DNA of 61,127 nt, filler included. It is 7 parts of 7 records of this genome, joined end to end, with 100 filler letters (N's around TTAATTAATTAA, not from the genome) between each part and the next. Parts side by side here need not be neighbours in the genome. Positions count along the whole stretch, not along the records: positions 33,200 to 48,149 come from SRR31156797_46591; 6 more parts are not named here. One strand, written 5' to 3'. Made by a program: the position numbers and the translations under genes. This document shows, piece after piece, positions 11,363 to 55,068 of the stretch. The notes below the pieces were generated by a model, which worked only from the letters and a program-made list of their open reading frames with translations, was not told the origin of the DNA and did not search any database. Each line of letters opens with the position of its first letter. Position 1 is the first letter of the stretch.

Positions 11363-11462
11363 NNNNNNNNNNNNNNNNNNNNNNNNNNNNNNNNNNNNNN
11401 NNNNNNTTAATTAATTAANNNNNNNNNNNNNNNNNNNNNNNNNNNNNNNNNNNNNNNNNNNN
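11363..11462. other. Artificial contig spacer (N44-TTAATTAATTAA-N44)
   Basis: N-runs around an all-frame stop linker; composition changes across it. Confidence 0.98.
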
Positions 11463-16601: not shown

Positions 16602-16701
16602 NNNNNNNNNNNNNNNNNNNNNNNNNNNNNNNNNNNNNNNNNNNNTTAATTAATTAANNNNNNNNNNNNNNNNNNNNNNNNNNNNNNNNNNNNNNNNNNN
16701 N
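16602..16701. other. Artificial contig spacer
   Basis: N-runs around TTAATTAATTAA. Confidence 0.98.
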
Positions 16702-27845: not shown

Positions 27846-27945
27846 NNNNNNNNNNNNNNNNNNNNNNNNNNNNNNNNNNNNNNNNNNNNTTAATTAATTA
27901 ANNNNNNNNNNNNNNNNNNNNNNNNNNNNNNNNNNNNNNNNNNNN
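27846..27945. other. Artificial contig spacer
   Basis: N-runs around TTAATTAATTAA. Confidence 0.98.
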
Positions 27946-33099: not shown

Positions 33100-33199
33100 N
33101 NNNNNNNNNNNNNNNNNNNNNNNNNNNNNNNNNNNNNNNNNNNTTAATTAATTAANNNNNNNNNNNNNNNNNNNNNNNNNNNNNNNNNNNNNNNNNNNN
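33100..33199. other. Artificial contig spacer
   Basis: N-runs around TTAATTAATTAA. Confidence 0.98.
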
Positions 33200-33919
33200 G
33201 GCGATCTCGTTTTCGTGGTGCGGGAAGATAAGGTCCTGTCCGCCGCCGTGTATATCGAAGGTTTCACCCAGGTAATGCCCGCTCATCGCCGAACATTCGA
33301 TGTGCCATCCCGGACGGCCGCGCCCCCAGGGCGAATCCCAGCCCGGCTGATCGTCGTCGGACGGTTTCCACAGAACGAAGTCGGCGGCGTCTTTTTTGTA
33401 GCCGGCGACCTCGACCCGCGCCCCCTCGATCACTTCGCGACGATCCAGACGCGACAATTTGCCGTAATCGGCCATCGACGGCACGTGGAAAAGGACATGG
33501 CCTTGCGATTCGTAGGCGTGATCTTTTTCGATCAGGGATTCGATCATCGCCACCATCATTCCGATGTGCCCGGTGGCGCGCGGCTCAACATTCGGGTCCA
33601 GCGCCCCCAACGCCTTCATGTCCATGTGGAACGCATCGGTCGTGCGGGCCGTGATGCTGTCGATGGGCTCGCCCGAGGATTGCGATGCCGCAATGATCTT
33701 GTCATCGACATCGGTAATGTTGCGAACATAGGTGACGTCGGCGTAGAGACGCTTCAGCAGCCGATACAAGACATCGAAAACGACGACCGGGCGGGCGTTG
33801 CCGATGTGGGCGAAATCGTAGACGGTCGGCCCGCAAACATAGAGGCCGACGGTGTTCGGTTTGATCGGGGTGAATTCTTCTTTCGCGCGCGACAGCGTGT
33901 TGTACAAATGAAGTGTCAC
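33200..33919 (-). CDS. cysS: Cysteine--tRNA ligase (3'-truncated)
   Basis: [48 protein letters not shown] start with GAGGA RBS. Confidence 0.96.
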
Positions 33920-33950
33920 GGAAGTTCCTCGTCGTTTTTCGGTTTGTCGT

Positions 33951-35177
33951 TCAGCCGCCCAGGCGTTCCAGGACCCGGTCACGACCGATCATCGGCAACA
34001 GGGCGTCCATGCCCGGTCCTTTTTCGGCACCCGTCACCGCCAGCCGGAGGGCACGGGCGACGCTTCCTGAGCCGACCCCGCATATGGCCGCGGTCGACTT
34101 GACCCAAATCGCCCAGGTTGCGGCGTCAAAGGGTTCGGCCGGCAGTTCATCGCGTGCCGTCAGCACCAGATCCAGATCCTCGATGATGGCGGGGACATCG
34201 GCGAAACAGACCCGGTGCCATTCGATGGCTTGCGAGAACAAACCGAGGTGGCCACGCACCGCCAGCCAGAATTCCTCGTCGGCATTGTCCAACCCGAGAT
34301 CCGACAGCCTCTTCTCGACGGCCTCGAAGGGCATGGCATGCAGGACGTCCAGATTGAAGGCACGCAATGCCGCCGGATCGAACGTCGCCGCATCGCCGTA
34401 GGCGGTAAGATCGAACCCATCGGCCAGATCGGCGAGGCTGTATTTCGGTTCAACCACCGGTCCGCGTCCGAGACTGATCAGCATATTGTTGAGCGCCATG
34501 GCCTCGATGCCGCTATCTCGTACCGCTTCGACCGTCGGCAGTTCACCTGCCGGTGCGGAAGCCGATTCCGCGATCGACATGGGACGAAGATGCCCGAAGG
34601 CCGGTGCCATTGCACCCAATGCCATGAATACCTGCATCTGCACGGAAGTCTCGGCCAGACGTTCCTCGTCACGGATAACATGGGTAACGGCAAAATCGAT
34701 ATCGTCGATGACCGACGTGAACCATCGCATGAAGGTACCGTCGGTGCTGAAGACTTCCGGGTCCTCCAGCCCCTCGGCGACGAAAGTCTGGCGATTACGG
34801 ACCAGTTCGTCCCAGGTTATCTCGCCGCGCTGCAGCCGGAAACGCCATGTCGGCTCGGCGCCCGATGCATCGTCGTTCGATTTTGCATCGGCATAGATTC
34901 GGTCCGCATCCTTCAACGTTTCGAAAGCGGCGCGGTAGCGGTCCTCACGCTCCGATTGCCGGGCGAACAGATCCCATTCAAGACCCAGCCACAGCAGATC
35001 GCGTTCGATGCCGATGGCAAATTCGGCCGCCGAGCGTTCCGGCACGACATCGTACAGCCGCAGCAGGAAGGTTCCTCCCTGGTGTGCTGCATACAACCAA
35101 TTGACCAATGCCATGCGGGCATCGCCGACGGTCAGAAGGCCCGTGGTCGAAGGTGCGAAACGGACAATTGTGTTCAT
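33951..35177 (-). CDS. Glutamate--tRNA ligase-like protein with degenerate catalytic motifs
   Basis: [35 protein letters not shown] anticodon domain; HIGH and KMSKS motifs lost. Confidence 0.85.
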
Positions 35178-36835
35178 ACCAGATCCGTAAACCGGTTGGT
35201 GATCGGATAACGCCGATCGCGCCCGAAGGCCCGATGGGTAATTTTAACCCCAGGAGGGGCCTGCCGTCTTTTGTATTCGGCACGATCCAGCATACGCCAG
35301 ACACGGCGGACGGTCGCCTCGTCAAAGCCGGCGGCGACCAAATCCGCGACCGAGCGCTCCTCTTCGATCAAGCCGCCGAGAATGGCATCGAGTTCGTCAT
35401 AGGGCGGCAGGGTGTCCTGATCGGTCTGGTCCGGCTTCAATTCGGCCGACGGCGGTTTGGTAATGATGCGTTCCGGAATGACGCGCCCGGACGGCCCGAG
35501 GGCGCCTGCCGGCCGCGTAGCATTGCGCCAGCACGAGAGCGCGAAGACAGCCGTCTTGTAAACATCCTTCAAAACCGAATAACCGCCGCACATGTCGCCG
35601 TAGATGGTGGCGTATCCGACCGACATTTCGGATTTATTGCCGGTGGTCAGAAGCATATGGCCGAACTTGTTCGATACCGCCATCAGCACCAGTCCGCGGG
35701 CGCGGGCCTGGATGTTTTCCTCGGTTGCGTCCGGTTCGCGTCCGGCAAAAAGCCCGGCCAGCATCGAATCGAATGCCTGCATGGCCGGTTCGATCGAAAC
35801 CGTTTCCACGCGAATCCCCATCAGCGCGGCAGCTTCCTCGGCATCGACGATGCTTTCTTCGGAGGTATAGGGCGACGGCATGACAACAAGGAGAACGCGT
35901 TCCGGCCCCAACGCATCGACCGCAACCGCCGCCGTCAGTGCGCTGTCGATTCCACCGGACATTCCAATGACAACACCGGGAAAACCGTTCTTGCCGACAT
36001 AGTCACGCAACCCCAGGACCAAGGCCGAATAGACCGCTTCGTCGCCGGACGGTGGCGCGTGCTGTTCGGCGGAATCGCAGGCCCAGCCCGTATCCGATTG
36101 GCGCCAAACCGTCGGCAACACAGATTCGACCCAGGATTCCATCCGGCAGACGATCTCGCCGGAAGCATCGAGGACAAAGGAATCGCCATCGAACACCAAT
36201 TCGTCCTGACCGCCGACCAAGTTCACATAAGCCAACGGGATTCCGGTTTCGGATACACGGGCACGGGCGAGGTCCAGGCGCGCATCGGGTTTGTCGTATT
36301 CGAAAGGGGACCCATTGATGACAAGCAGAACTTCGGCACCCTTGGCCGCCAAATGGGCCGATACACGGGGAAACCACATATCCTCGCAGACCATGACGCC
36401 AAGACGCAGGCCTTTGAAATCGATCGGTTCGGGCAACGGCCCGGCGGAAAACACCCTCTTTTCGTCGAAGACGCCGTAGTTCGGCAATTCATGCTTCGAG
36501 CGCACGACCGAAATCGCACCATCGACGAGCAACAACGCGACGTTATGAAGGGCACCGTCGACCCGCCAGGGAGCACCGAGCAGAACGGCCGGGCCACCGT
36601 CGGCGGTTTCGGCGGCAAAAGCCTCCACCGAACTTTTGACCCGATCCTGAAACGATCCCTTGAGCACAAGGTCCTCGGGCGGATAACCGGCGACCGCGAG
36701 TTCTCCGGCCATGACCAAGTCGACGCCGGCCGCGGCTGCCTCGGCGCGGGCATTCCGGATGCGGCCGATGTTTCCGTCGATATCACCGACGGTCGGGTTT
36801 ACCTGGACCAGCGCAATGGAAAGTGTTTTGTTCAT
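35174..36835 (-). CDS. nadE: Glutamine-dependent NAD+ synthetase
   Basis: Nitrilase-type domain (GYPPED, LPNYGVFDEKR, CEDMW) plus SGGIDS, ENIQAR, TGNKSE, PPSAEL. Confidence 0.96.
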   Translation of the reverse strand: MNKTLSIALVQVNPTVGDIDGNIGRIRNARAEAAAAGVDLVMAGELAVAGYPPEDLVLKGSFQDRVKSSVEAFAAETADGGPAVLLGAPWRVDGALHNVALLLVDGAISVVRSKHELPNYGVFDEKRVFSAGPLPEPIDFKGLRLGVMVCEDMWFPRVSAHLAAKGAEVLLVINGSPFEYDKPDARLDLARARVSETGIPLAYVNLVGGQDELVFDGDSFVLDASGEIVCRMESWVESVLPTVWRQSDTGWACDSAEQHAPPSGDEAVYSALVLGLRDYVGKNGFPGVVIGMSGGIDSALTAAVAVDALGPERVLLVVMPSPYTSEESIVDAEEAAALMGIRVETVSIEPAMQAFDSMLAGLFAGREPDATEENIQARARGLVLMAVSNKFGHMLLTTGNKSEMSVGYATIYGDMCGGYSVLKDVYKTAVFALSCWRNATRPAGALGPSGRVIPERIITKPPSAELKPDQTDQDTLPPYDELDAILGGLIEEERSVADLVAAGFDEATVRRVWRMLDRAEYKRRQAPPGVKITHRAFGRDRRYPITNRFTDLV

Positions 36836-37121
36836 CGAAAGCGCGGAAGATTCCAATGGAAATTCCAAGTCGGCAACCTAGGCAGAGCATTCCAGCCTGT
36901 CAACGCGGCCTTCGCAACTATGGTCGTGATAGCCGGTTCAATTATGGAATTATGCGGTATTTCCATCCATTGCGGATGTTTCTGAATCGCCGGGTGTGAT
37001 CGCCGACACAGAGAAGAAAGCCGTTGTAAGATAGCGTCAGGGTTGGGTGGAAGCTTTTCGAAACCTGCGAAAAACCGCATAATGGATGCCGCAGGGTATG
37101 GTGGGCGAAGCAGGACTGGTC

Positions 37122-38237
37122 ATGGCAGACAAACCGAAGCAGGTCCAGGAGATGGTTTGGACCGGCACGTCGGATCGGCAAATCTCGAACGACGCCGATC
37201 TGTTCGAACCCGGCAAAACTCCCGTGGGAAAACTCCTGAAGACCAACCGCGATCCCGGCAAAACCGCGGGCAATCGCGGCAAGCCATTGTATTCAAAGGA
37301 CGCGGCCCAACCGCCGGCAGAGCCTGCACAAAAAGCGGCGCCGAAACCCGCGGCGGAAAAAGCAAAACCCGCGGCACCGACACCGCAACCGGCACCCGCA
37401 AAAAAACCGGTCGCGTCGGCCGCACCTCCGGCACCGCCAAAACCGGCGGCGCCGATGCCCGGTGCTGGATCAACACCACGCGAAAAGAGCCGCGTCATTG
37501 CCAAGGCGGTGGTCGGTTCCTTTGTCGATCGGTTGAAAACGGAAGCCCAAAGCAAGGGTGGCTCTTTAACGCTGGACGACATCGAATCGCTTGACCAGGA
37601 GTTCGAACAGAAGACGGCAGCGCTTGAAACCCTGTTTGAAAAGACCTTCGAGGAATACGCCCGCACCTACGCCAAGGGCGAAACCGAGGAACGCCGCCAC
37701 CATCCCTTCGATCGGCTGATCGTCGGGCCCATCGAAAGAATACTTGCCGGCGGCAACGGCCCATCAGTCGAAAAGGGCGGCATTCCGCGGCGTATTCTTC
37801 CCGGATTCTTCATGGGCGTGAATATGATGATGGGCCCCGATGTCATGGCCGACTATCGCAACCGCGCGAGCAGCGTATTCAAACGCGTCGGCGGGGCGAA
37901 CGGCGGCGATTGGCAGCATTTCTACGAGGATTCGGAGGCCCAGGACCTGCGTCTCGACGCGTTAATCGCGATGGCCGTCCATTTTTCCAATCCGGACAAA
38001 CGCGCCCAATGGTTTATGGGCATGATCAACGACCATTTGGCGCCGGTCGACGATGATGCCGATGACGAAACCGCCTGGCGATTGGCCCGTCCCGCCTATG
38101 AGCGCCTGATCGATGCCCTGTTCGCCGATCTGATGACGGCGGTTTCCAGCCCGAAGGCCCGGGAATCGATCACCAAACGCTTCGGCCCGGAAACCTGCGC
38201 ATCGGTGGCTGCGATCATGAAGGGGTTGGGTGCCTAG
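37122..38237 (+). CDS. Hypothetical protein with Pro/Ala/Lys-rich linker and helical C-terminal domain
   Basis: Long ORF, AGGA before ATG 37122, low-complexity PA/K stretch; family not recognised. Confidence 0.7.
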   Translation: MADKPKQVQEMVWTGTSDRQISNDADLFEPGKTPVGKLLKTNRDPGKTAGNRGKPLYSKDAAQPPAEPAQKAAPKPAAEKAKPAAPTPQPAPAKKPVASAAPPAPPKPAAPMPGAGSTPREKSRVIAKAVVGSFVDRLKTEAQSKGGSLTLDDIESLDQEFEQKTAALETLFEKTFEEYARTYAKGETEERRHHPFDRLIVGPIERILAGGNGPSVEKGGIPRRILPGFFMGVNMMMGPDVMADYRNRASSVFKRVGGANGGDWQHFYEDSEAQDLRLDALIAMAVHFSNPDKRAQWFMGMINDHLAPVDDDADDETAWRLARPAYERLIDALFADLMTAVSSPKARESITKRFGPETCASVAAIMKGLGA

Positions 38238-38331
38238 GAAATTCACCACCCAGTTGTCGAGGCAAAGTTAAAGGGCCGAAAGGCCCTTTTTCGATTGGGT
38301 GAGACCGCCATGTCCATCCGGGGCTTGGCGG

Positions 38332-39498
38332 TCAGTCGTCGGCTTCACCGTTCATTTTGCGTAGCAGGAACTCGCGTCCGACCTTGACCATGGATTTGCC
38401 GTCGTAGGTTACGATGTCGGCGGTGGCGTAGGTTTCGGACCATTTTTCGGGCAGGTAGGATCCGGTCCCGATGACGTCGATGGGCGCTTCGGCGTAGGCC
38501 ATGACGCGGCACTTTTCGACCCCGAAGCCGGACGAACAGACGATTTGCACCTTTCGGAAGCCGGCTTTGTCGAGTTCGTCGCGCAGGTGATAGACGGCCG
38601 CCGCCGAAACCCCCGTTCCGGTCAGGTAACGAAGTTCGGTTTCGTTGCGGTACAGGCGAAAGGCCATGGGTGCGTGTTCTTCCAGGACCGCGTAGGAACG
38701 CTGCGGGCCCAAACCTTCGACGAAGCGCCCGCCGTGAGTGTCGAGGCGAATGGATATCCGTCCCTCGGCCGCCAATTCCGGGAACCGCCGGCACACTTCC
38801 AACGCGTCGGATATCTCGCGGCCGAAGAAATCGGACAGGACGGTCAGGTTTTCCTCGGGAAACATCTCGACGAACATTTCGGATGCACGGAGCGTCGAAC
38901 CGGCATAGCCGATCAATCCGTGAGGCATGGTGCCAAGGCCCTGATCACGGCCGAAAAATGTGGACGTCGCATCGTTGGCAGTGCCGATGAAGCCGGTCGC
39001 CTCCTTTTCCTTCCTGGCGGCGGCCGATCCGACGGACGCCGCATAGGCCATCAGGGTTTCCATTTCCGTGCCGGCGCAATGCCGGGCATCCATGGCGATG
39101 AATGCGGTCTTCGGCATGTCGCAGCACATGGTGAAGGCATTGTAGGCGGCGACGCAGCAGGCCCCGAGTTTCTGCAGATACAGGGTCTCGAGGTCGACCA
39201 AATGGTAGAACGAGCCGGTGATATAAAGCAGCGGTTCACCGGCACCGACCCAATCGCCTTCGTCGTAGTTCAGTTTGATTTCGAACTCGGTTCCGCGCTT
39301 ACGGGCGATATCTTTCAACCAATCGACCATCAGGCGTGGCGTGAAAATGACCGGACGGCGCATGAACACGGCATAGGTGACCGTTTTGTCGCCGAAATGA
39401 CCGATGGCGGTTTTGGTTTTCAGGAAATAACGGTCCGTCCAACGTTCGACGTCTTCCGCGTCGGGGCCGTTGGCAGCCGGCTTCGGGATGTCCCGCAT
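38332..39498 (-). CDS. pncB: Nicotinate phosphoribosyltransferase
   Basis: TDRYF, MDARH, GTMPH, IRLDTHG, SSGF, IGTGS, ATADIV; near nadE. Confidence 0.8.
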   Translation of the reverse strand: MRDIPKPAANGPDAEDVERWTDRYFLKTKTAIGHFGDKTVTYAVFMRRPVIFTPRLMVDWLKDIARKRGTEFEIKLNYDEGDWVGAGEPLLYITGSFYHLVDLETLYLQKLGACCVAAYNAFTMCCDMPKTAFIAMDARHCAGTEMETLMAYAASVGSAAARKEKEATGFIGTANDATSTFFGRDQGLGTMPHGLIGYAGSTLRASEMFVEMFPEENLTVLSDFFGREISDALEVCRRFPELAAEGRISIRLDTHGGRFVEGLGPQRSYAVLEEHAPMAFRLYRNETELRYLTGTGVSAAAVYHLRDELDKAGFRKVQIVCSSGFGVEKCRVMAYAEAPIDVIGTGSYLPEKWSETYATADIVTYDGKSMVKVGREFLLRKMNGEADD

Positions 39499-39517
39499 TT
39501 CGAACCTCCCAACTACG

Positions 39518-40900
39518 TCACGAACCGGCAACGGCGCGGTTGCGCTTCTGAAGGCGATCGTCCTTGAGCATCTCGGCCAGGAGAAATGCCAGTTCCAACG
39601 CCTGTTTTGCGTTCAGGCGCGGATCACAATGGGTGTGATAGCGGGCCGCGAGATTGGCCTCGGTGATCGCCTGGGCACCGCCGACGCACTCGGTAACATC
39701 CTGACCGGTCAATTCGAAATGAACGCCGCCGGCGTGGGTTCCTTCGGCGTTATGAACGGCAAAGAAACCCTGAACCTCGGCCAGCATGCTATCGACATGC
39801 CGCGTTTTGAAACCGTTCGAGCTTTTCACCGTGTTCCCGTGCATGGGATCGCAGGCCCAAACGACCGACTTGCCTTCGGATTGAACGGCACGAACGAACG
39901 GCGGCAGGCGCCGCTCAACCTCGTCGGCACCGAACCGCGCGATGACGGTCAGACGCCCCGGTTCGTTTTCCGGGTTGAGCACGTCGCAAAGCCTGATCAA
40001 TCCTTCCGGATCGGCGCCGGGGCCGATCTTGGTGCCGACCGGATTGCCGATGCCGCGCAGGAACTCGACATGGGCGCCGTCGATATCGCGGGTGCGATCA
40101 CCGACCCACAGCATATGCGCCGATGTGTCGTACCAGTCGCCGGTCGTCGAATCGACACGGGTCATGGCCTGTTCGTAATTGAGCATCAAGGCTTCGTGCG
40201 ACGTGAAAAAATCGGTCTCGCGGATCTGCGGCGTCGTTTCGCTGGTCAGGCCGCAGGCGGCCATGAAAGCAAGCGTTTCGTCCAGCCGGTCGGCCATGTC
40301 GCGGTAGCGTTCGCCAAGCGGGCTGTCGGCAACGAAGCCCAGGTTCCACTGATGAACCTTGTGAAGATCGGCATAGCCGCCCTGGGCGAAGGCCCGAAGA
40401 AGGTTGAGCGTCGCCGCAGCCTGATTGTGCGCCTGCACCAGGCGCTCGGGATCGGGATTGCGTGCCTCGGGCGTGAACTCCATGGCGTTGATCATGTCGC
40501 CCCGGTAAGCCGGCAGGGTGACGCCATCGATGGTTTCGGTATCGGCCGAGCGCGGTTTGGCGAACTGGCCGGCAAGCCGGCCGACCTTGACCACCGGACA
40601 GGCGGCACCGTAGGTCAGCACCACCGACATCTGAAGCAGCACCCGGAACGTGTCGCGGATGTTGTCGGGATGGAACTCGGCAAAGCTTTCAGCGCAATCG
40701 CCGCCCTGAAGCAGGAACCCGCGTCCCTCGGCAACGCTGGCCAGGTGCGCTTTCAGACGCCGTGCTTCGCCAGCGAAGACCAGCGGCGGAAAGCAGCCAA
40801 GCCGATCCTCGACATCGACCAGCGATTTCGAATCCGGATATGTCGGAACCTGTTTGATCGGCTTTTGACGCCAGCTCGTGGGCGTCCACTTGTCGGCCAT
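39518..40900 (-). CDS. Class II DAHP synthase
   Basis: [36 protein letters not shown]. Confidence 0.95.
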
Positions 40901-41010
40901 TACTGCCCTCTGCGTTCAGATCAATTCGCGGAATCAGAGCCTATACGCTGGAATATGGGAATTTTCCAGCAAAACCGCCGAAAAAAACGTCCCTCGCCGG
41001 TTGTTCGGCG

Positions 41011-42378
41011 TCATGCGTCCGGGTCGGGACGTTTGTCGCGCATGGTGACAAACTCCTCGGCAGCCGTCGGATGAATGCCTATTGTAGCATCGAATTGGGC
41101 CTTGGTGGCACCGCATTGAAGCGCGATTCCCAGGCCCTGAACGATTTCCGGCGCATCGATGCCGACCATGTGACAGCCGAGAACGCGATCGGTGGCGGCA
41201 TCGACGATCAGCTTCATCATGATGCCTTCATCACGACCGGTAAGGGTGTGTTTCATCGGCCGGAAACGCGATATGTAGACGTCGATGTCGCCGCGTTGCC
41301 GGGCTTCTTCCTCGGTCAGGCCGACCGAACCGACCGGCGGCTGGCTGAATACGGCCGACGGAATGTTTTCGTAATTCATGCGAATGGTTCTGCCGTTGAA
41401 CTGGGTCTCGGCGAAAGCCCTTCCTTCGGAAATGGCGACCGGCGTCAGGTTGATCCGATCGGTGCAATCGCCGACGGCGAAGATGCTGTCGACGCTGCTC
41501 CGGTTCCATTCATCGACAATCACCGCGCCTTTATCGTCAACATCAACGCCCGCCTCTTGAAGCCCGATACTTGCCGTGTTCGGGACGCGCCCGGTGGCAT
41601 ACATGACGAGATCGGTTTCAAGGGTCTGATCACCGGAAATCGACAGGCGATATCTGGACGCCGTCTTTTCGATGGCGTTGACGACGGTTTCGCGGCGGAT
41701 GGCTATTCCCTTTTTCTCGAGTTCGATGGCCAGGCAATCGCGCACATCCTCGTCGAAACCGCGCAGGATGTTGGATGCGCGGATAACAATGGTAACGTCG
41801 GCACCGAGGGCATTGAAGATACCGGCGAATTCAACCGCGATATAACCGCCACCGACAATAACGATCCGGCCCGGCAGTTCGGCCAGATCCAGTGCCTCGT
41901 TGGATGTGATGACATGTTCGATGCCCGGGATGTGCGGCATCGACGGCCAGCCGCCGGTGGCGACGAGGATTTTCTCGGCGGTTTTGACGGTGCCGCCGAC
42001 CTCGACCGTATGCGGATCTGTCAACACCGCATGGCCCCGCAATACCTCGACCGAATTGCTTTCGAGAATGGTCTCGTAGATCTTCTCCAGCCGGTCGAGT
42101 TCCTTGTCCTTCGCCGCAATCAGGGTTGGCCAGTCGAAATCCACCGACCCGATCGTCCAGCCGTAAGCGGCGGCGTCTTCGAAGTCGTGAGCAAAATGGG
42201 CGCCATAGACCAGCAGCTTTTTCGGCACGCAGCCGCGCAGCACGCAGGTACCGCCGATGCGGCTTTTTTCGGCGATGGCCGTGCGGGCTCCGAATCCGCC
42301 GGCCAAGCGGGTCGCCCGCACGCCGCCGGATCCGGCCCCGATGGTGATCAGATCGTAATCGAATTTAGCCATTGGCAT
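41011..42378 (-). CDS. gor: Glutathione-disulfide reductase
   Basis: GAGSGG, GGTCVLRGCVPKK, GGGYIAVE, IGIHPTAAEE. Confidence 0.95.
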   Translation of the reverse strand: MPMAKFDYDLITIGAGSGGVRATRLAGGFGARTAIAEKSRIGGTCVLRGCVPKKLLVYGAHFAHDFEDAAAYGWTIGSVDFDWPTLIAAKDKELDRLEKIYETILESNSVEVLRGHAVLTDPHTVEVGGTVKTAEKILVATGGWPSMPHIPGIEHVITSNEALDLAELPGRIVIVGGGYIAVEFAGIFNALGADVTIVIRASNILRGFDEDVRDCLAIELEKKGIAIRRETVVNAIEKTASRYRLSISGDQTLETDLVMYATGRVPNTASIGLQEAGVDVDDKGAVIVDEWNRSSVDSIFAVGDCTDRINLTPVAISEGRAFAETQFNGRTIRMNYENIPSAVFSQPPVGSVGLTEEEARQRGDIDVYISRFRPMKHTLTGRDEGIMMKLIVDAATDRVLGCHMVGIDAPEIVQGLGIALQCGATKAQFDATIGIHPTAAEEFVTMRDKRPDPDA

Positions 42379-42386
42379 AGGCAGTC

Positions 42387-43844
42387 CTAGGTATCGATAC
42401 CGGCCATGCAGAGATACTTGATCTCAAGGTAATCATCGACACCGTATTTCGAGCCTTCGCGTCCCATGCCCGATTCCTTGATGCCGCCGAACGGCACTTC
42501 GGACGTGGACAGGAGACCGGTATTGATGCCGACCAGCCCGAATTCGAGCCCTTCCGACACCCGCCAGATGCGGCCGATGTCGCGGCTGTAGAAATACGAA
42601 GCCAGCCCGAACTCGGTGGCATTGGCAAGCCGGATCGCCTCTTCCTCGGTCTTGAAACGGAACAACGGCGCCAAAGGGCCAAAGGTCTCTTCACGGGCCA
42701 CGGCCATCTCGGCGGTGACGTCGGCAACCACCGTCGGTTCGAAGAAATTGCCGCCAAGCGCGTGACGTGCGCCGCCAACCAGAACGCGGGCACCCTTCGC
42801 GGTGGCGTCGGCAATATGCTCCTCGACCTTCTCGACGGCGGCCATGTCGATCAACGGCCCCTGTTGGCTGCCCTCTTCCATGCCGTCGGCAACCTTGAGC
42901 GCCGCAACCCTGGCAGAAAACTTCTCGGCGAAGGCGTCGTAAACACCGTCCTGCACCAGCACCCGGTTGGCGCATACGCAGGTCTGGCCGGTGTTGCGGT
43001 ACTTGGAAATCATGGCGCCTTCGACGGCGGCATCTAGATCGGCGTCATCGAAGACGATGAACGGCGCGTTGCCGCCCAGTTCCATGGAGACCTTCTTGAC
43101 GGTACCAGCCGATTGTGCCAGCAGCACCTTGCCGATTTCGGTCGAGCCGGTGAAGGTGACCTTGCGCACGATCGGGTTCGAGGTCAGTTCGCCGCCGATG
43201 GCGCCGGCCGATCCGGTGACGATGTTGAACACGCCTTTCGGGATGCCGGCCTCTTCCGCCAGCACGGCAAGTGCCAGGGCCGAATACGGTGTGGCACTGG
43301 CCGGTTTGACAACGACCGGACAGCCGACCGCCAATGCCGGCGCACATTTGCGGGTGATCATGGCGCTCGGGAAATTCCACGGCGTGATCGCGGCGACGAC
43401 GCCGATCGGCTCCTTGATGACCAGAAGCCGCCTGTCGTTCTGGTGCTGCGGAATGGTGTCGCCGTAGATACGGCGGCCTTCCTCGGCAAACCATTCGACA
43501 AAGGAGGCGCCGAACCCGACCTCGCCGCGCGACTCGGCCAGGGGTTTGCCCTGTTCCGCCGTCATCAGTTGCGCCAGATCGTCCTGATTTTCCATGATCA
43601 GTTCGTACCAGCGGCGAAGAATGTTGGCGCGATCCTTGGCTGTGCGGCTGCGCCAATCGGCCCATGATGCGTTCGCCGCCTCGATGGCGCGACGGGTTTC
43701 GGCGGCACCCAGTTTCGGCACCGTACCGATTGCCGAACCGTCGGCTGGATTGGTGACCTCTAGCGTTTCGCCGGAATCGGCATCGATCCAGGCGCCATTC
43801 ACATAGCACTGTTGCCGGAATAAGCCGGAATTACTGATTTGCAT
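42387..43844 (-). CDS. gabD: NAD(P)-dependent succinate-semialdehyde dehydrogenase
   Basis: ITPWNFP, FTGSTEIG, MELGGNAP, GQTCVCANR, EETFGP. Confidence 0.93.
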   Translation of the reverse strand: MQISNSGLFRQQCYVNGAWIDADSGETLEVTNPADGSAIGTVPKLGAAETRRAIEAANASWADWRSRTAKDRANILRRWYELIMENQDDLAQLMTAEQGKPLAESRGEVGFGASFVEWFAEEGRRIYGDTIPQHQNDRRLLVIKEPIGVVAAITPWNFPSAMITRKCAPALAVGCPVVVKPASATPYSALALAVLAEEAGIPKGVFNIVTGSAGAIGGELTSNPIVRKVTFTGSTEIGKVLLAQSAGTVKKVSMELGGNAPFIVFDDADLDAAVEGAMISKYRNTGQTCVCANRVLVQDGVYDAFAEKFSARVAALKVADGMEEGSQQGPLIDMAAVEKVEEHIADATAKGARVLVGGARHALGGNFFEPTVVADVTAEMAVAREETFGPLAPLFRFKTEEEAIRLANATEFGLASYFYSRDIGRIWRVSEGLEFGLVGINTGLLSTSEVPFGGIKESGMGREGSKYGVDDYLEIKYLCMAGIDT

Positions 43845-43894
43845 GATTTTTGCCTCAATGGTTCTAAATAGGATCCAATAGACGTGGGATCCTT

Positions 43895-43928
43895 AGCCGG
43901 CGAGACGCCGCAGCCGGCGAGACGCCGC
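43895..43928. repeat. Perfect 17-bp tandem duplication
   Basis: AGCCGGCGAGACGCCGC x2. Confidence 0.9.
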
Positions 43929-44052
43929 GCCTCCCTTTCTCCCTCGTCCCGATTATTAATTGGATCAGGTACAAGCGCCCGTCAACCCGGGCCGGACTAA
44001 TATTCCGCAAGTTCGGCCATGGAAGTTTCCCCCGTCGCCGGCAAATGGATTT

Positions 44053-44672
44053 TCATGCCTCGTCTCCGTTTTCCGGCAATGACGACCGTTGCCCGGCTTC
44101 AAGTTCCGCGATACGACGCCGCAAAGGCGCAACTATTTCCGCAACCTGTTCTTCCGTGTATTTGGGGGTATATGCTGCGGGCAATTGACGTCCCAGACCG
44201 TGACATCGAAGACGATGGCGCGTTCAACGTTGGCGCCGTAGTCGGAATCGGCGAGCGTTGCCAGAATGTCGGCGTCGTCCTCAACCACCCGGGCACGGCC
44301 CCAGATTTTGATCCGGCGGCGGTTGGCATAATCCATCAGGAAGATATAGGCCTTGTCGTTCTCCGAGAGGTTTCCGACCGAGATATATTGCCGGTTTCCT
44401 GAGAAGTCGGCGAAGGCAAGAGTGTGTTCGTCCACCACCTTGAGAAAACCCGGATTACCGCCCCGGTGTTGGATATAGGGCTGGCCATCGGCATTGGCGG
44501 TGGCGAGATAGAAGGAATCGCGCTCGGCAATGAAGCGCGCGAAATCTTCGGTCACGGTTTCCCGCCAACCGCCCTTTTTTTCCATCCTTTCGTATCCCCG
44601 GCGCAATCCTTTCGATTTCTGGACCTTCTTTACCGCCGAGGTAAAGGCAATATCACTGTTGGCGGCGCTCAT
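44053..44672 (-). CDS. Pyridoxamine 5'-phosphate oxidase-like FMN-binding protein, apparent frameshift near 3' end
   Basis: FYLATA..GQPYIQHRGG, ADFSGNRQYIS, WDVNCPQHI; called frame stops at 44133 while a natural-looking tail continues in another frame to 44053. Confidence 0.8.
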
Positions 44673-44714
44673 CGTTGCCTCCCCATTCCGGTTGCATGTC
44701 TACTGAATTGGATT

Positions 44715-44736
44715 AAATAGACAGATCTGTATATTT
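44715..44736. promoter_or_regulatory. Candidate TetR operator 1
   Basis: AAATAGACAGATCTGTATATTT near-perfect palindrome between divergent genes. Confidence 0.7.
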
Positions 44737-44840
44737 TTGCAAGGTGCAGGAGGAGAAAATTCTTTCAGCCCGTTGTTTTCGAAATATCACATATATTCCA
44801 CCTATAAATGGTTCTTGCGCAACCTATCGAAGAGGATAAT

Positions 44841-44854
44841 ATACAGACTTGTAT
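44841..44854. promoter_or_regulatory. Candidate TetR operator 2
   Basis: ATACAGACTTGTAT, same core as operator 1, 20 nt before tetR ATG. Confidence 0.6.
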
Positions 44855-44873
44855 GTTTTTATGGACACGCGAT

Positions 44874-45437
44874 ATGGCCACAGGAAAACGTGAACATTTG
44901 ATCGACACCGCGCTTGAGCTTTTCCTCGAAAACGGGTTTCACGCGACCGGAATCGATCGCATCCTGGCGGAAGCGGGCGTCGCCAAAATGACCCTGTACA
45001 AGCACTTCAGGTCCAAGGACGATCTGATCCTGGCAACGCTGAAGCGCCGCGATGAACGCTTTCTCGACTGGTTCACAAATGCCGTCGAACGCCGTGGCAA
45101 TACACCGCGCGATCACCTGTTGGGCATCTTCGACGCCCTCGGCGAATGGTTTGGCTCCAAGGATTTCCGGGGATGCATGTTCATCAACGCATCCGCCGAG
45201 TTTGGTCGCCAGGACGACCCGGTCCATAAGGCCGCACGGGAACACAAGCGACTGGTCCACAATTATGTTCGGGGATTGGCCGCCGCCGCCGGCGCCAGTG
45301 ACGCCGAAACCTTGGCAAAGGGTCTGACCCTTCTGATGGAAGGCGCCATTGTCATGGCCCATGTTGCCGACGAGCCGGATTCGGCCATTCAAGCAAAAAA
45401 AGCTGCCGAGACCCTGCTCGCCCGGGCTGGGATCTGA
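44874..45437 (+). CDS. TetR/AcrR family transcriptional regulator
   Basis: GFHATGIDRILAEAGVAKMTLYKHFRSKDDL HTH; FRGCMFIN. Confidence 0.94.
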   Translation: MATGKREHLIDTALELFLENGFHATGIDRILAEAGVAKMTLYKHFRSKDDLILATLKRRDERFLDWFTNAVERRGNTPRDHLLGIFDALGEWFGSKDFRGCMFINASAEFGRQDDPVHKAAREHKRLVHNYVRGLAAAAGASDAETLAKGLTLLMEGAIVMAHVADEPDSAIQAKKAAETLLARAGI

Positions 45438-45519
45438 TCCTTACCGGCTGTCGGAAAACCGGATTTTTTCATCAAATATCAGCCGAATCGACGTCACGGA
45501 TGCTCAAACTCCCGTGAAA

Positions 45520-45535
45520 TGTGATCTGTATCACG
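45520..45535. promoter_or_regulatory. CRP/FNR-family-like binding site
   Basis: TGTGA-tctgta-TCACG versus consensus TGTGA-N6-TCACA. Confidence 0.5.
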
Positions 45536-45649
45536 TAATTTTTTTGAGAATGATAATAAACTACAAAAACGGATGGCCATTCCTCTGATTGGCCGGAGCC
45601 TATCCGGAACCTGGCCCTCCCATAACCCTTTTGGAAAGGAGTGGGACCC

Positions 45650-46006
45650 ATGCGTAAGAAATTTGAGACCCGCGATCCGCCAAGGAAAGGATTCGCCCTG
45701 TTTGCCGGCGCCGCGGCGTTGGCCACGTCCCTCCTCTTTGGCGCATCCGTGCCGGCATCGGCACAGACCGCGTGCGCCCAGCACGCGGACATCGTAAAGC
45801 AGCTTTCGGGCAAACATTCGGAATCTCCCGTCGGCATCGGGCTCGCCAGCAACGGCGGGATCGTCCAGATCTTTTCGTCCAAGGACGGCGCCACCTGGAC
45901 CATCGTCATGACCATGCCCAGCGGCGTTTCCTGCCTGATGGCAGCCGGCGAATCCTGGGAAAACATCCAGCCGGAACTGTTCGGCGTTAAAGGCCCGAAG
46001 GTATAG
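45650..46006 (+). CDS. Small exported hypothetical protein
   Basis: AGGAG RBS, hydrophobic signal with ASA site, two Cys, TWTIV..GVSCLMAAGESW. Confidence 0.72.
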   Translation: MRKKFETRDPPRKGFALFAGAAALATSLLFGASVPASAQTACAQHADIVKQLSGKHSESPVGIGLASNGGIVQIFSSKDGATWTIVMTMPSGVSCLMAAGESWENIQPELFGVKGPKV

Positions 46007-46053
46007 CCCAACCCGTTTATCGCGCCGTTTCGACAGCGGCAATGACGGCGGCG

Positions 46054-46971
46054 CTATTCGGCCGGGAAGTTTTCCCGCCAGTGCCGGGCAATATCGATCC
46101 GCCGCGCCACCCAGACCTTGTCGTGCTTCATGACGTAGTCAAGGAAGCGCTTTAACGCCTGGATACGGGCCGGCCGTCCGACCAACCGGCAATGCAGGCC
46201 GATGGAGAGCATCTTCGGTGCCTCCGCCCCTTCCTCATAGAGCGCGTCGAAGGCGTCCTTGAGATAGGTGAAATACTGTTCGCCTGAGTTGAAGCCCTGC
46301 ATGGCGGCGAAGCGCATGTCGTTGGTGTCCAGCGTGTAGGGCACGACCAGATGCGGCGCATCCACAACCCGGCTCCAGAACGGCAGGTCGTCGGAATAGT
46401 CGTCGGCGTCGTACAGGAAGCCGCCCTCTTCGGCAACCAGGGCGCGGGTGTTTTCGCTGGTCCGCCCGGTATACCAGCCGAGCGGGCGCTCGCCGGTAAC
46501 GCTTTTCTGAATTTCGATGGCGCGCTGCATGTGTTCCCGCTCTTCGGCAATGGGCATGCCGTGGTAGTTGATCCAGCGATATCCGTGCGAACAGATCTCG
46601 TGGCCATCCTTCATGGCGGCCAGGACCGGTTCCGGATTGCGCTCCATCGCCATTCCGACGGCAAAGGCGGTCAGCGGCAACTGGCGTTCCCGGAACACGC
46701 GCAACACCCGCCAGACACCGGCCCGGCTGCCATACTCGTAGAGGGATTCCATACTCATATGCCGGGCGCCCTCGAAGGCAGCGGCGCCGATAATCTCGGA
46801 CAGGAAGGTTTCCGACGCGGCGTCGCCGTGCAATACGCAGTTTTCGCCGCCCTCTTCGATGTTGAGGACGAACTGCAAAGCGACCCGGGCGCCGCCCGGC
46901 CATTTCGGATCCGGCGGGGTAGCGCCGTATCCGATCAAATCGCGAGGGTAGTCCGCCATCGTCTCAGTCAT
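46054..46971 (-). CDS. puuE: Allantoinase PuuE (polysaccharide deacetylase fold)
   Basis: YPRDLIGYG, EEGGE, ESLYEYGSRAG, HGYRW, GWYTGR, GLHCRLVGRP. Confidence 0.95.
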   Translation of the reverse strand: MTETMADYPRDLIGYGATPPDPKWPGGARVALQFVLNIEEGGENCVLHGDAASETFLSEIIGAAAFEGARHMSMESLYEYGSRAGVWRVLRVFRERQLPLTAFAVGMAMERNPEPVLAAMKDGHEICSHGYRWINYHGMPIAEEREHMQRAIEIQKSVTGERPLGWYTGRTSENTRALVAEEGGFLYDADDYSDDLPFWSRVVDAPHLVVPYTLDTNDMRFAAMQGFNSGEQYFTYLKDAFDALYEEGAEAPKMLSIGLHCRLVGRPARIQALKRFLDYVMKHDKVWVARRIDIARHWRENFPAE

Positions 46972-47079
46972 TTCCCATCCCTTTCTTCAATAAGTGTTTT
47001 GGATCGGCAGAAGGGGCCAGCGCACGGATTCTTCCGTGCGCTGGAGTCGTTACTTCTTCGGTCCAAAATCTACTTTTAT

Positions 47080-48149
47080 TTATTCGGCCTCGGCCGGAGC
47101 TTCCGCGCCAGCAGTCTTGGGCATGATCACGTAGTAGAAGAACGCACCCAAAACGGCACCGATAACCCAAGCATAACCCGACAGGAAGGCCAGCGCCTCA
47201 AGCCGGGCCGCGGAGATCGAGAAGATCGCGGCCAGACCGAAGGCAATCAACGCCTTCTTGTTCCAGCCTTTGTCGTAATAGTACTTGCCGCTGGGATCGG
47301 ACGAGAACAGCTGCTGGATGTCCAGTTTCTGCTGCTTCACCAGATAATAGTCGGTGATCATGATGCCGTAGACCGGCGCCAGGATCGCGCCCAAGATGTT
47401 AACGAAGCCGCCGATGCCGATGGAACTGATAACCGAAACCCAAAGGGCGCCGATCGGGAAGGCGACGACGGCGGTGATCAACCCGCCGATTTTGAAGTTG
47501 ATCTTGCTCGGCCACAGGTTGGCAAGGTCGTATGCCGGCGGCACGAAGTTGGCAACCAGGTTGATGCCGACGGTCGCGGCGAAGAAAGTCACAGCGGCAA
47601 TGATCGTCAACGGCAGGGCATCGACCTTCTCGATGATGTCGGCCGGATTGGTCAATTTTTCACCGAACAGCACGACCGTTCCCGCCGTCACGAACAGCGC
47701 GATGAACGAGAAGAAGGCGACGTTCAGCGGCAGACCAAGGAAGTTGCCCAACTTCATGTCCTTCTGCGTCTTCACGAAACGCGAGAAATCGCCGTAGTTG
47801 ATGACGACCGCGGCAAAGTAGGCGATCATCGTGCCGGTAATGGCCAGAAATGCCGCGAAGGAACCGTGCTCGTAAGGTTCGCCGCCACTGAAGATAGCAC
47901 CGACTTCCGACATCAGACCGCCGCCGGCCTTGACCCAGATGATGATCATCAGAGTGATCATGACCACGTAAACGAACGGACCGGCGAAGTTCAGGAAGCC
48001 CTTGATCCAATCGATACCGCGCCAGAACATGTAGATCTGGAACAACCACACGACGACGTAGGAGAACCAGTCGACGCCGGCCATGCCAAGGACGCCCTCT
48101 CCACCTTCGAGGCCGAACAACGCCTTGAGCATCAGAGACAAGGCGGTCG
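47080..48149 (-). CDS. NCS1 family nucleobase:cation symporter (5'-truncated)
   Basis: NYGDFSRF, INLVANF, GAILAPVYGIMITDYY, GWN; upstream of puuE. Confidence 0.92.
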
Positions 48150-48249
48150 NNNNNNNNNNNNNNNNNNNNNNNNNNNNNNNNNNNNNNNNNNNNTTAATTA
48201 ATTAANNNNNNNNNNNNNNNNNNNNNNNNNNNNNNNNNNNNNNNNNNNN
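48150..48249. other. Artificial contig spacer
   Basis: N-runs around TTAATTAATTAA. Confidence 0.98.
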
Positions 48250-54968: not shown

Positions 54969-55068
54969 NNNNNNNNNNNNNNNNNNNNNNNNNNNNNNNN
55001 NNNNNNNNNNNNTTAATTAATTAANNNNNNNNNNNNNNNNNNNNNNNNNNNNNNNNNNNNNNNNNNNN
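54969..55068. other. Artificial contig spacer
   Basis: N-runs around TTAATTAATTAA. Confidence 0.98.

Follow-up and report, generated by a model that had tools for sequence, protein, structure and literature searches.

A GluRS2 descendant without its catalytic motifs in the nadE–cysS array of an uncultured alphaproteobacterium

The locus and the encoded protein

The window, the whole stretch of DNA that was analysed (61,127 nt), consisted of seven contigs separated by spacers of the form N44-TTAATTAATTAA-N44, and the G+C content of its parts ranged from 0.28 to 0.61. The gene under study was located on the contig at positions 33200 to 48149, which had a G+C content of approximately 0.60; the other parts of the window do not belong with it. 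An open reading frame with an ATG start, a TGA stop codon and no internal stop codons was found between the genes for a glutamine-dependent NAD synthetase (nadE) and a cysteinyl-tRNA synthetase (cysS) (Table 1). The cysS gene, the product of which opens VTLHLYNT..., was truncated by the contig end at position 33200; its GTG codon was situated 32 nt downstream of the TGA, with a Shine-Dalgarno-like GAGGAA sequence spaced before it. A second strain, approximately 99% identical, was recovered from an independent seawater run (X2), in which the gene was covered by four contigs and had no indels. The five runs listed for the sequence included no RNA.

The original prediction, which was made from the DNA alone, described an intact frame of 408 codons that overlapped nadE through an ATGA, was followed by cysS and retained a C-terminal anticodon-binding region. 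All of these features were confirmed, and the four motif strings that it had quoted (16 residues at positions 6-21, LRLYDVV at 39-45, IRDEERL at 168-174 and 12 residues at 202-213) were all present in the translation.

Two Pfam domains were identified in the protein. The tRNA-synt_1c domain (PF00749, 2e-32) matched in two stretches that were split at the insert, and Anticodon_2 (PF19269, 1.7e-9) matched residues 340-406. The AF2 model had a pLDDT of 91.4 and a pTM of 0.88, with dips in confidence at residues 41-50, 101-110 and 201-210, and its best matches in the PDB were all GluRS structures (TM 0.78-0.84). A class I catalytic-domain fold of the E/Q type and a bacterial anticodon-binding domain were therefore both present in the Pfam results and in the model. 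The protein had been predicted to differ from GluQ-RS, and in agreement with this prediction the best GluQRS model gave it a score of 112.6 against a cut-off of 250; the anticodon domain was present and the motifs were lost, which placed it outside the GluQ-RS group.

Table 1. Positions of the genes and protein features at the locus, counted along the whole window
Feature	Position	Strand	Evidence
GluRS2-derived pseudo-synthetase ORF, 408 aa + stop	33951..35177	-	translation, Pfam, alignment, tree, model
nadE, glutamine-dependent NAD synthetase; stop overlaps pseudo-synthetase start (ATGA)	35174..36868	-	
cysS, 5' part; probable GTG start at 33919	33200..33919	-	
Degenerate HIGH region, residues 10-21; TVGD vs HVGN in active GluRS2	35115..35150	-	alignment
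LRLYDVV, residues 39-45, in place of LRLDDTD; T and D lost clade-wide	35043..35063	-	alignment
Junction of the 33-40-residue deletion of the acceptor-binding insert, residues 97-110; pLDDT dip to 67	34848..34889	-	
Arg151, in place of a Tyr invariant in active GluRS2; R in 9 of 10 clade members	34725..34727	-	alignment
IRDEERL, residues 168-174, in place of IRGEDHV; R169 kept, H173 changed to R in 9 of 10	34656..34676	-	
Former KMSKS loop, residues 199-215, now unconserved; pLDDT 64	34533..34583	-	alignment, model
Retained anticodon-binding domain, residues 301-408; dN/dS 0.18-0.43	33954..34277	-	Pfam, dN/dS

Ancestry of the gene and loss of its catalytic elements

When 5.8 billion proteins were searched, 3832 of the 8000 candidates that were scored matched with an E value of at most 0.001. 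Of the 120 matches listed, nine proteins of 402-412 aa (P0001-P0009) were 53-90% identical to the window protein and four proteins of 443 aa (P0010-P0013), referred to here as intermediate, were 47-49% identical. The other 107 were mostly of 438-459 aa, were no more than 45% identical and were called glutamate--tRNA ligase wherever their source named them. The degenerate clade was small and monophyletic and was found in metagenomes only; a pattern scan of the contigs of species genomes gave 80 loci, all of which were canonical with at most 44% identity, and no full-length clade member. Within a library of 1.84 billion representatives at 50% identity, the clade was represented by P0009 (673 bits) and a truncated form, P0124, and the next matches were canonical. 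Three further GluRS2-like proteins (P0164, P0206 and P0241) were also motif-less or truncated; the existence of these few representatives indicates that similar decay has occurred elsewhere.

Synteny was examined in 92 canonical loci drawn from species genomes and metagenomes. The gltX gene was preceded by nadE in the same orientation in 52 of the 75 loci with room for it and followed by cysS in 54 of 78, and both neighbours were present in 36 of 68. The same nadE-gltX-cysS order as in the window was observed in the clade members L081, L082 and L083, and the window nadE gene was 76-79% identical to those of L082 and L083. Among genomes that carry a canonical short copy, the five nearest each had three members of the family: a copy of approximately 470 aa with a HIGH motif of the HIGG or HLGS type, the short copy itself, in which the motif was HVGN, and a gene of the GluQRS-like type. 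The open text of PMC3927822 gives HxGG as the alphaproteobacterial signature of GluRS1 and HxGN as that of GluRS2; since HVGN fits the latter, the short copy was assigned to GluRS2.

A consistent result came from a maximum-likelihood tree with 45 rows, for which the long copies served as the root. The 11 degenerate rows formed one clade (SH-aLRT 97) that was nested within the short GluRS sequences and was sister to the four intermediate proteins (SH-aLRT 100); the long copies, as the outgroup (SH-aLRT 100), were separate from it. The root-to-tip path of the degenerate clade was approximately 2.5 to 3 times that of the nearest canonical relatives, and its terminal branches were short. By its position in the ancestral nadE-gltX-cysS array, the window gene is orthologous to alphaproteobacterial GluRS2 and is not the added paralogue that it was originally taken for, and its host is an uncultured alphaproteobacterium related to the Rhodospirillales. 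A scaffold function for CysRS, which had also been proposed, or for NadE was dropped as a candidate: active GluRS2 genes commonly share this ancestral order, so the adjacency of cysS and nadE provides no evidence for it.

Motifs were compared in an alignment of ten clade members with 54 canonical short GluRS sequences. The HIGH histidine, which was present in 100% of the canonical sequences, was T, S or N in all ten clade members, and the last position of the motif had changed from N to D or E. The HxGN form was absent from the window protein; the sister intermediate group still had H(V/I)GN. The T of DDTD was replaced by V, I or A and the final D by V. The pocket tyrosine, also found in 100% of the canonical sequences, was R in nine of the ten clade members, as was the histidine of RGEDH. 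Both the K and the R of LSKR, the KMSKS-type loop of the short alphaproteobacterial copy, had been lost and the loop was replaced by unconserved sequence, which in the window protein amounted to 12 residues (202-213). In addition, 33-40 alignment columns of the acceptor-binding insert were deleted, as expected from the short insert noted in the original prediction, which had also correctly reported the loss of both class I signatures.

There were 163 columns with at least 90% conservation in the 54 canonical sequences, of which the clade had lost 61 and kept 83; the lost columns were concentrated at HIGH, TD, the insert, Tyr151, RGEDH and the KMSKS loop. In the anticodon domain, positions K369, G370, F374 and P376, which are conserved in active enzymes, were also altered. 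R6, A8 and R169, which we take to be the equivalents of glutamate-binding residues in Thermus GluRS, were invariant and had been retained. D19, R151, R173 and H310 were new residues fixed across the clade, and a single lysine was conserved in the entire clade protein.

The window protein scored 174.2 bits with the NCBIfam equivalog model for bacterial GltX (TIGR00464, gltX_bact), below the cut-off of 289.95. The scores of other proteins were 356.9 for a canonical member (P0021), 247.1 for an intermediate one (P0012) and 167.8 for P0009. The motif losses are not due to chance, since they are common to one monophyletic clade, and these results showed that the losses of the catalytic elements had a single origin.

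Selection on the gene and its fate in related genomes

All dN/dS values were calculated by the NG86 method, and the canonical comparison, made on one multiple alignment, consisted of 40 pairs sampled from 102 with nadE genes that were 72-85% identical. Pairs among the window gene, L082 and L083 had dN/dS values of 0.21-0.28, which are rough because dS (0.8-1.4) was near saturation, compared to a canonical median of 0.18; the values were 0.13-0.18 for nadE and 0.12-0.15 for cysS. The ratio of dN in gltX to dN in nadE was 1.21, 2.01 and 2.16 in the degenerate pairs and had a median of 1.29 (range 0.75-1.57) in the 40 canonical pairs. For the truncated genes of three relatives (G046, G069 and G114, see below) dN/dS was 0.17-0.24 at unsaturated dS values of 0.24-0.58, with nadE at 0.11-0.12. 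When the full-length genes were divided by domain, the values were 0.18-0.31 for the N-terminal domain, 0.24-0.56 for the helical domain and 0.18-0.43 for the anticodon domain, all of which were below 0.6.

Sequence identity was then compared between the clade and active forms at matched overall divergence. Identity was 0.25 in the clade and 0.65 in active forms for the KMSKS loop, and 0.42 and 0.57, respectively, for the insert remnant; for residues 216-300 it was 0.57 and 0.48, and for the anticodon domain 0.60 and 0.57. The KMSKS loop and the insert remnant had lost constraint; residues 216-300 and the anticodon domain had not. These results showed that the remaining fold is under purifying selection, so that the loss of catalytic residues seen in the alignment is combined with selection on the rest of the protein, as in a pseudoenzyme. 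The original prediction had called for orthologues with the same motif loss and for their dN/dS; the values obtained, 0.17-0.28 across the full-length and truncated forms, argue against simple decay.

The intermediate-clade protein was used to search 401 genomes of the order to which the nearest canonical genome belongs. One of them, G125, had a 78% match. Its family comprised seven genomes, in which nadE was 67-75% identical to the window gene, and the truncated relatives were obtained from a search at this family level. GluRS1 and a GluQRS-like gene were present in all seven genomes, and a GlnRS-type match of approximately 565 aa was present in six; the G125 copy was confirmed as glnS (768 bits against a cut-off of 425.8). 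The position that GluRS2 would occupy differed between the genomes. In G125 it held the intermediate, full-length, motif-altered form. In G046, G069 and G114 it held a P0009-like form of 287 aa that ended before the anticodon domain and abutted cysS; at the pocket positions of the window protein, these truncated forms had Q rather than R at 151 and retained H at 173. A pair of PIN-like and antitoxin-like genes lay between nadE and cysS in G101. No GluRS2 was found in G015 or G087, and in G015 a histidine kinase gene followed nadE. At a further locus, L100, there was an independent internal deletion. The empty or replaced slot in G101, G015 and G087 indicates that the gene is dispensable in close relatives, an observation that counts against the reading that we favour below.

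GlnRS had a different distribution in genomes with an active GluRS2, as none of the five nearest such genomes had a GlnRS-type match. When two lists covering the 401 genomes were read against each other, a GluRS2-type match was recorded in 234 genomes, glnS in 145 and both in four. In three of these four (G208, G389 and G404) the GluRS2 match was weak and was a cross-hit to GluRS1, because only GlnRS, GluRS1 and GluQRS-type genes were present. The co-occurrence of GluRS2 and GlnRS is likewise described as rare in the open text of PMC3927822. This near mutual exclusion makes displacement by GlnRS the likely cause of the change. Takeover of tRNAGln charging by GlnRS did not feature in the original prediction. 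From the relatives with nadE genes of 67-75% identity, we infer that the organism of the window also carries GlnRS and GluRS1. Of five genomes of the G125 family that were searched, four had GatB and none had AsnRS above the cut-off; GatCAB has therefore probably been kept in this family for asparagine.

A proposed non-catalytic role and its alternatives

We favour, with a moderate degree of confidence, the interpretation that the window gene encodes a catalytically dead descendant of GluRS2 that was displaced by GlnRS and has been retained for some function other than catalysis, for which tRNA binding is the most plausible candidate. In the window lineage, the charging of tRNAGln was most likely taken over by a GlnRS gained through horizontal transfer. 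In a single ancestral series of steps, GluRS2 would then have lost what is needed for the synthesis and transfer of Glu-AMP, namely the HIGH histidine, the KMSKS loop, the TD of DDTD, the pocket tyrosine and most of the acceptor-binding insert, and purifying selection would since have held the Rossmann core, the helical domain and the anticodon-binding domain. Our preferred guess for the full-length form is that it may bind tRNAGln, tRNAGlu or Glu-tRNAGln without charging.

Given the loss of five catalytic and acceptor elements and a gltX_bact score well short of the cut-off, the window protein is very probably unable to aminoacylate, consistent with the non-catalytic protein originally predicted. 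Since the remaining fold is under purifying selection, it would be a pseudoenzyme with a retained non-catalytic job, and the evenly maintained C-terminal half suggests that this job is related to tRNA in the full-length clade. The proposal of tRNA binding stands only in part: it agrees with the conservation of the C-terminal domains in the full-length clade, but three species have dropped the anticodon domain while their N-terminal domain is still under selection, and anticodon binding can therefore not be the whole story. The deletion of that domain in G046, G069 and G114 also weakens the case for an essential or anticodon-dependent role. Furthermore, the loss of most of the acceptor-binding insert may interfere with the normal docking of tRNA.

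Among known systems, the closest to the window protein is the alphaproteobacterial GluRS2 (approximately 445 aa, HxGN), with which it shares ancestry, position between nadE and cysS, domain order and predicted fold. It differs from the active enzyme in the five lost elements and in falling below the gltX_bact cut-off, and its relatives are found alongside GlnRS, a combination that is hardly ever seen for active GluRS2. The Helicobacter pylori GluRS2 belongs to the same class and provides a precedent for roles beyond charging. As described in the open text of PMC3241645, it is specific for tRNAGln, acts in a dynamic transamidosome, binds tRNAGln together with GatCAB whatever the acylation state of the tRNA, resamples Glu-tRNAGln and accelerates its deacylation; in that of PMC2777447, it is described as reading tRNAGln largely through the acceptor stem. 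Unlike the window protein, however, it is catalytically active with intact motifs, and the epsilon and alpha groups of GluRS2 are phylogenetically distant (PMC3927822, open text). The second copy of Thermotoga maritima, its GluRS2, is reported in the same text to charge neither tRNAGlu nor tRNAGln. This inactivity is disputed, because PDB titles (3afh and 3al0) present the crystallised protein as a non-discriminating GluRS within a transamidosome; in contrast to the window protein, it has kept the class I motifs and arose by duplication of GluRS1. GluQ-RS (YadB) is a relative of the GluRS catalytic domain with a non-canonical role, and the 287-aa forms of G046, G069 and G114 similarly have no anticodon domain. 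However, GluQ-RS has intact catalytic motifs and is able to activate glutamate, whereas the window protein has an anticodon domain and has lost the motifs, and a GluQRS-like gene is present separately in the related genomes. HisZ is a catalytically dead synthetase paralogue that carries out no aminoacylation chemistry and is kept by selection; it differs from the window protein in having a defined partner and function.

The gene could also be a functionless relic that is being lost slowly, still translated in an operon between two needed genes, with selection limited to the avoidance of misfolding or aggregation and to the maintenance of translational coupling to cysS. The slot has decayed in several ways, with a truncated form of 287 aa left in G046, G069 and G114, a replacement in G101 and no GluRS2 in G015 and G087; the internal deletion in L100 and the motif-less or truncated P0164, P0206 and P0241 are further cases, and an overlap with the nadE stop together with a cysS start only 32 nt downstream, with its own GAGGAA, would suit coupling. 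Coupling keeps a frame open, but it would not hold dN/dS at 0.17-0.28. The constraint, seen at saturated dS, predates the diversification of the clade, the C-terminal domains match those of active enzymes in conservation, and D19, R151, R173 and H310 became newly fixed clade-wide, so that we regard a relic as unlikely. That the protein is a working glutamyl-tRNA synthetase with non-canonical signature motifs is the least likely of the alternatives and, in our judgement, highly improbable. Some class I synthetases tolerate odd motifs (TIGN reportedly occurs in a bacterial TrpRS, and forms of ArgRS are said to be without KMSKS), the overall GluRS fold is predicted with confidence, and R6, A8 and R169 have been retained. 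Residual catalysis would nevertheless have to survive the joint loss of five separate elements, including the insert that positions the acceptor end, a former KMSKS loop with an identity of 0.25 compared to 0.65 in active forms, and the presence of one conserved lysine in the whole protein; the score is far under the gltX_bact cut-off, and the genomes of relatives already carry GluRS1 and GlnRS.

A different division of the protein would make the N-terminal Rossmann domain the conserved unit, with a new role independent of ATP, such as the binding of glutamate or another anionic ligand or an action on pre-formed Glu-tRNA, and with the anticodon domain as an accessory. We consider this doubtful. 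The forms that have no anticodon domain are constrained (dN/dS 0.17-0.24 at unsaturated dS), the N-terminal domain is the most constrained part of the full-length forms (0.18-0.31), R6, A8 and R169 are invariant, and two new arginines, R151 and R173, have been fixed at pocket positions; the H. pylori GluRS2, with its deacylation of Glu-tRNAGln and a recognition of tRNAGln that depends mainly on the acceptor stem, is a suggestive parallel (PMC3241645 and PMC2777447, open text). The pocket is not uniformly conserved, however, as the truncated forms have Q at 151 and H at 173, and the acceptor-binding insert has been deleted.

The interpretation that we favour, a dead GluRS2 descendant retained after displacement by GlnRS, can be extended to a new family of pseudo-synthetases derived from GluRS2 that acquired a quality-control job once GlnRS had arrived. 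The protein might bind tRNAGln, or mischarged Glu-tRNAGln made by GluRS1, without charging, and then shield it, hand it to the GatCAB retained in these organisms for Asn-tRNAAsn or promote its deacylation. We put this forward only tentatively and think it rather improbable; if it were true, the protein would act as a guard while the organism changes over from the indirect glutamine pathway to the direct one. The open main texts covered (PMC3927822, PMC5388404, PMC3241645 and PMC2777447, in part) contained no description of a motif-less GluRS2; GluRS2 sequences are also listed in the additional files of PMC3927822, among which such a case could occur.

The transition of bacteria from indirect synthesis of Gln-tRNAGln, through GluRS2 or a non-discriminating GluRS and GatCAB, to the direct route through GlnRS has long been discussed. 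To our knowledge, few intermediates in this switch are known. A graded series is found here within one bacterial family, from an altered full-length GluRS2 beside GlnRS, through a full-length form with no motifs and a form with no anticodon domain, to complete loss. Some source annotations give genes of this kind the name 'glutamate--tRNA ligase' or 'glutamyl-tRNA synthetase', which can mislead the reconstruction of pathways. If the motif-less forms are functionless, they measure how long a redundant synthetase gene persists inside an operon. If they are functional, they would represent a natural bacterial pseudo-GluRS and would make it testable what the scaffold of a synthetase that does not charge tRNA can do.

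Composition of the window

The window (1-61127) is made up of seven contigs joined by N44-TTAATTAATTAA-N44 spacers, and the G+C content across these contigs ranges from 0.28 to 0.61. The contigs are of mixed origin; therefore, those neighbouring the contig that carries the GluRS2 open reading frame (ORF) are uninformative with regard to the organism from which this ORF comes.

Positions of the spacers and of the genes and loci considered
Feature	Position	Strand	Source or remark
Spacers	11363-11462, 16602-16701, 27846-27945, 33100-33199, 48150-48249, 54969-55068		window
383-aa protein	37086-38237	+	window; N-terminal part Pro/Ala/Lys-rich
399-aa ORF	38332-39531	-	window; near nadE
Two ORFs in the GluRS2 slot (nadE-cysS interval)	L150:802-1574		genome G101
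Shortened GluRS2	L100:9701-10543		347-kb metagenome contig

Genes near nadE

A Pfam search with the 383-aa protein gave no match. It is conserved upstream of nadE, in the divergent orientation seen here, at the degenerate clade loci L082 and L083 and in the related genomes G046 and G125, with 46-60% identity. For the 399-aa ORF the sole match was to the N-domain of quinolinate phosphoribosyltransferase and was sub-threshold (24.4 bits vs a cut-off of 27); the ORF, located near nadE, may represent a nicotinate/quinolinate PRTase-like NAD gene.

Altered, shortened and replaced forms of GluRS2

In the 443-aa intermediate GluRS2 forms (P0010-P0013) both HIGH and the insert were retained; the pocket Tyr was changed to D, RGEDH to RGVDH and LSKRxG to xSKExG. 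These forms fell below the cut-off of the bacterial GluRS model gltX_bact (247.1 vs 289.95), and one of them was found alongside GlnRS in genome G125 (L113, L152).

Four other GluRS2-like representatives have separate losses. P0164 (315 aa) has QLDD in place of HIGH and the KMSKS loop is gone, whereas the 370-aa P0206 lacks part of its N-terminus. HIGH is kept and KMSKS lost in P0241 (281 aa), and P0156 (423 aa) has a shortened insert with both HIGH and KMSKS kept.

The GluRS2 slot of genome G101 was occupied by a putative PIN/VapC-like ORF of 124 aa and a small putative antitoxin-like ORF, both named by eye. On the metagenome contig, approximately 183 aa of GluRS2 were left after a large internal deletion, with HIGH intact (LHVGN) and cysS still adjoining the shortened gene. 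This internal deletion is an independent route of decay for GluRS2.
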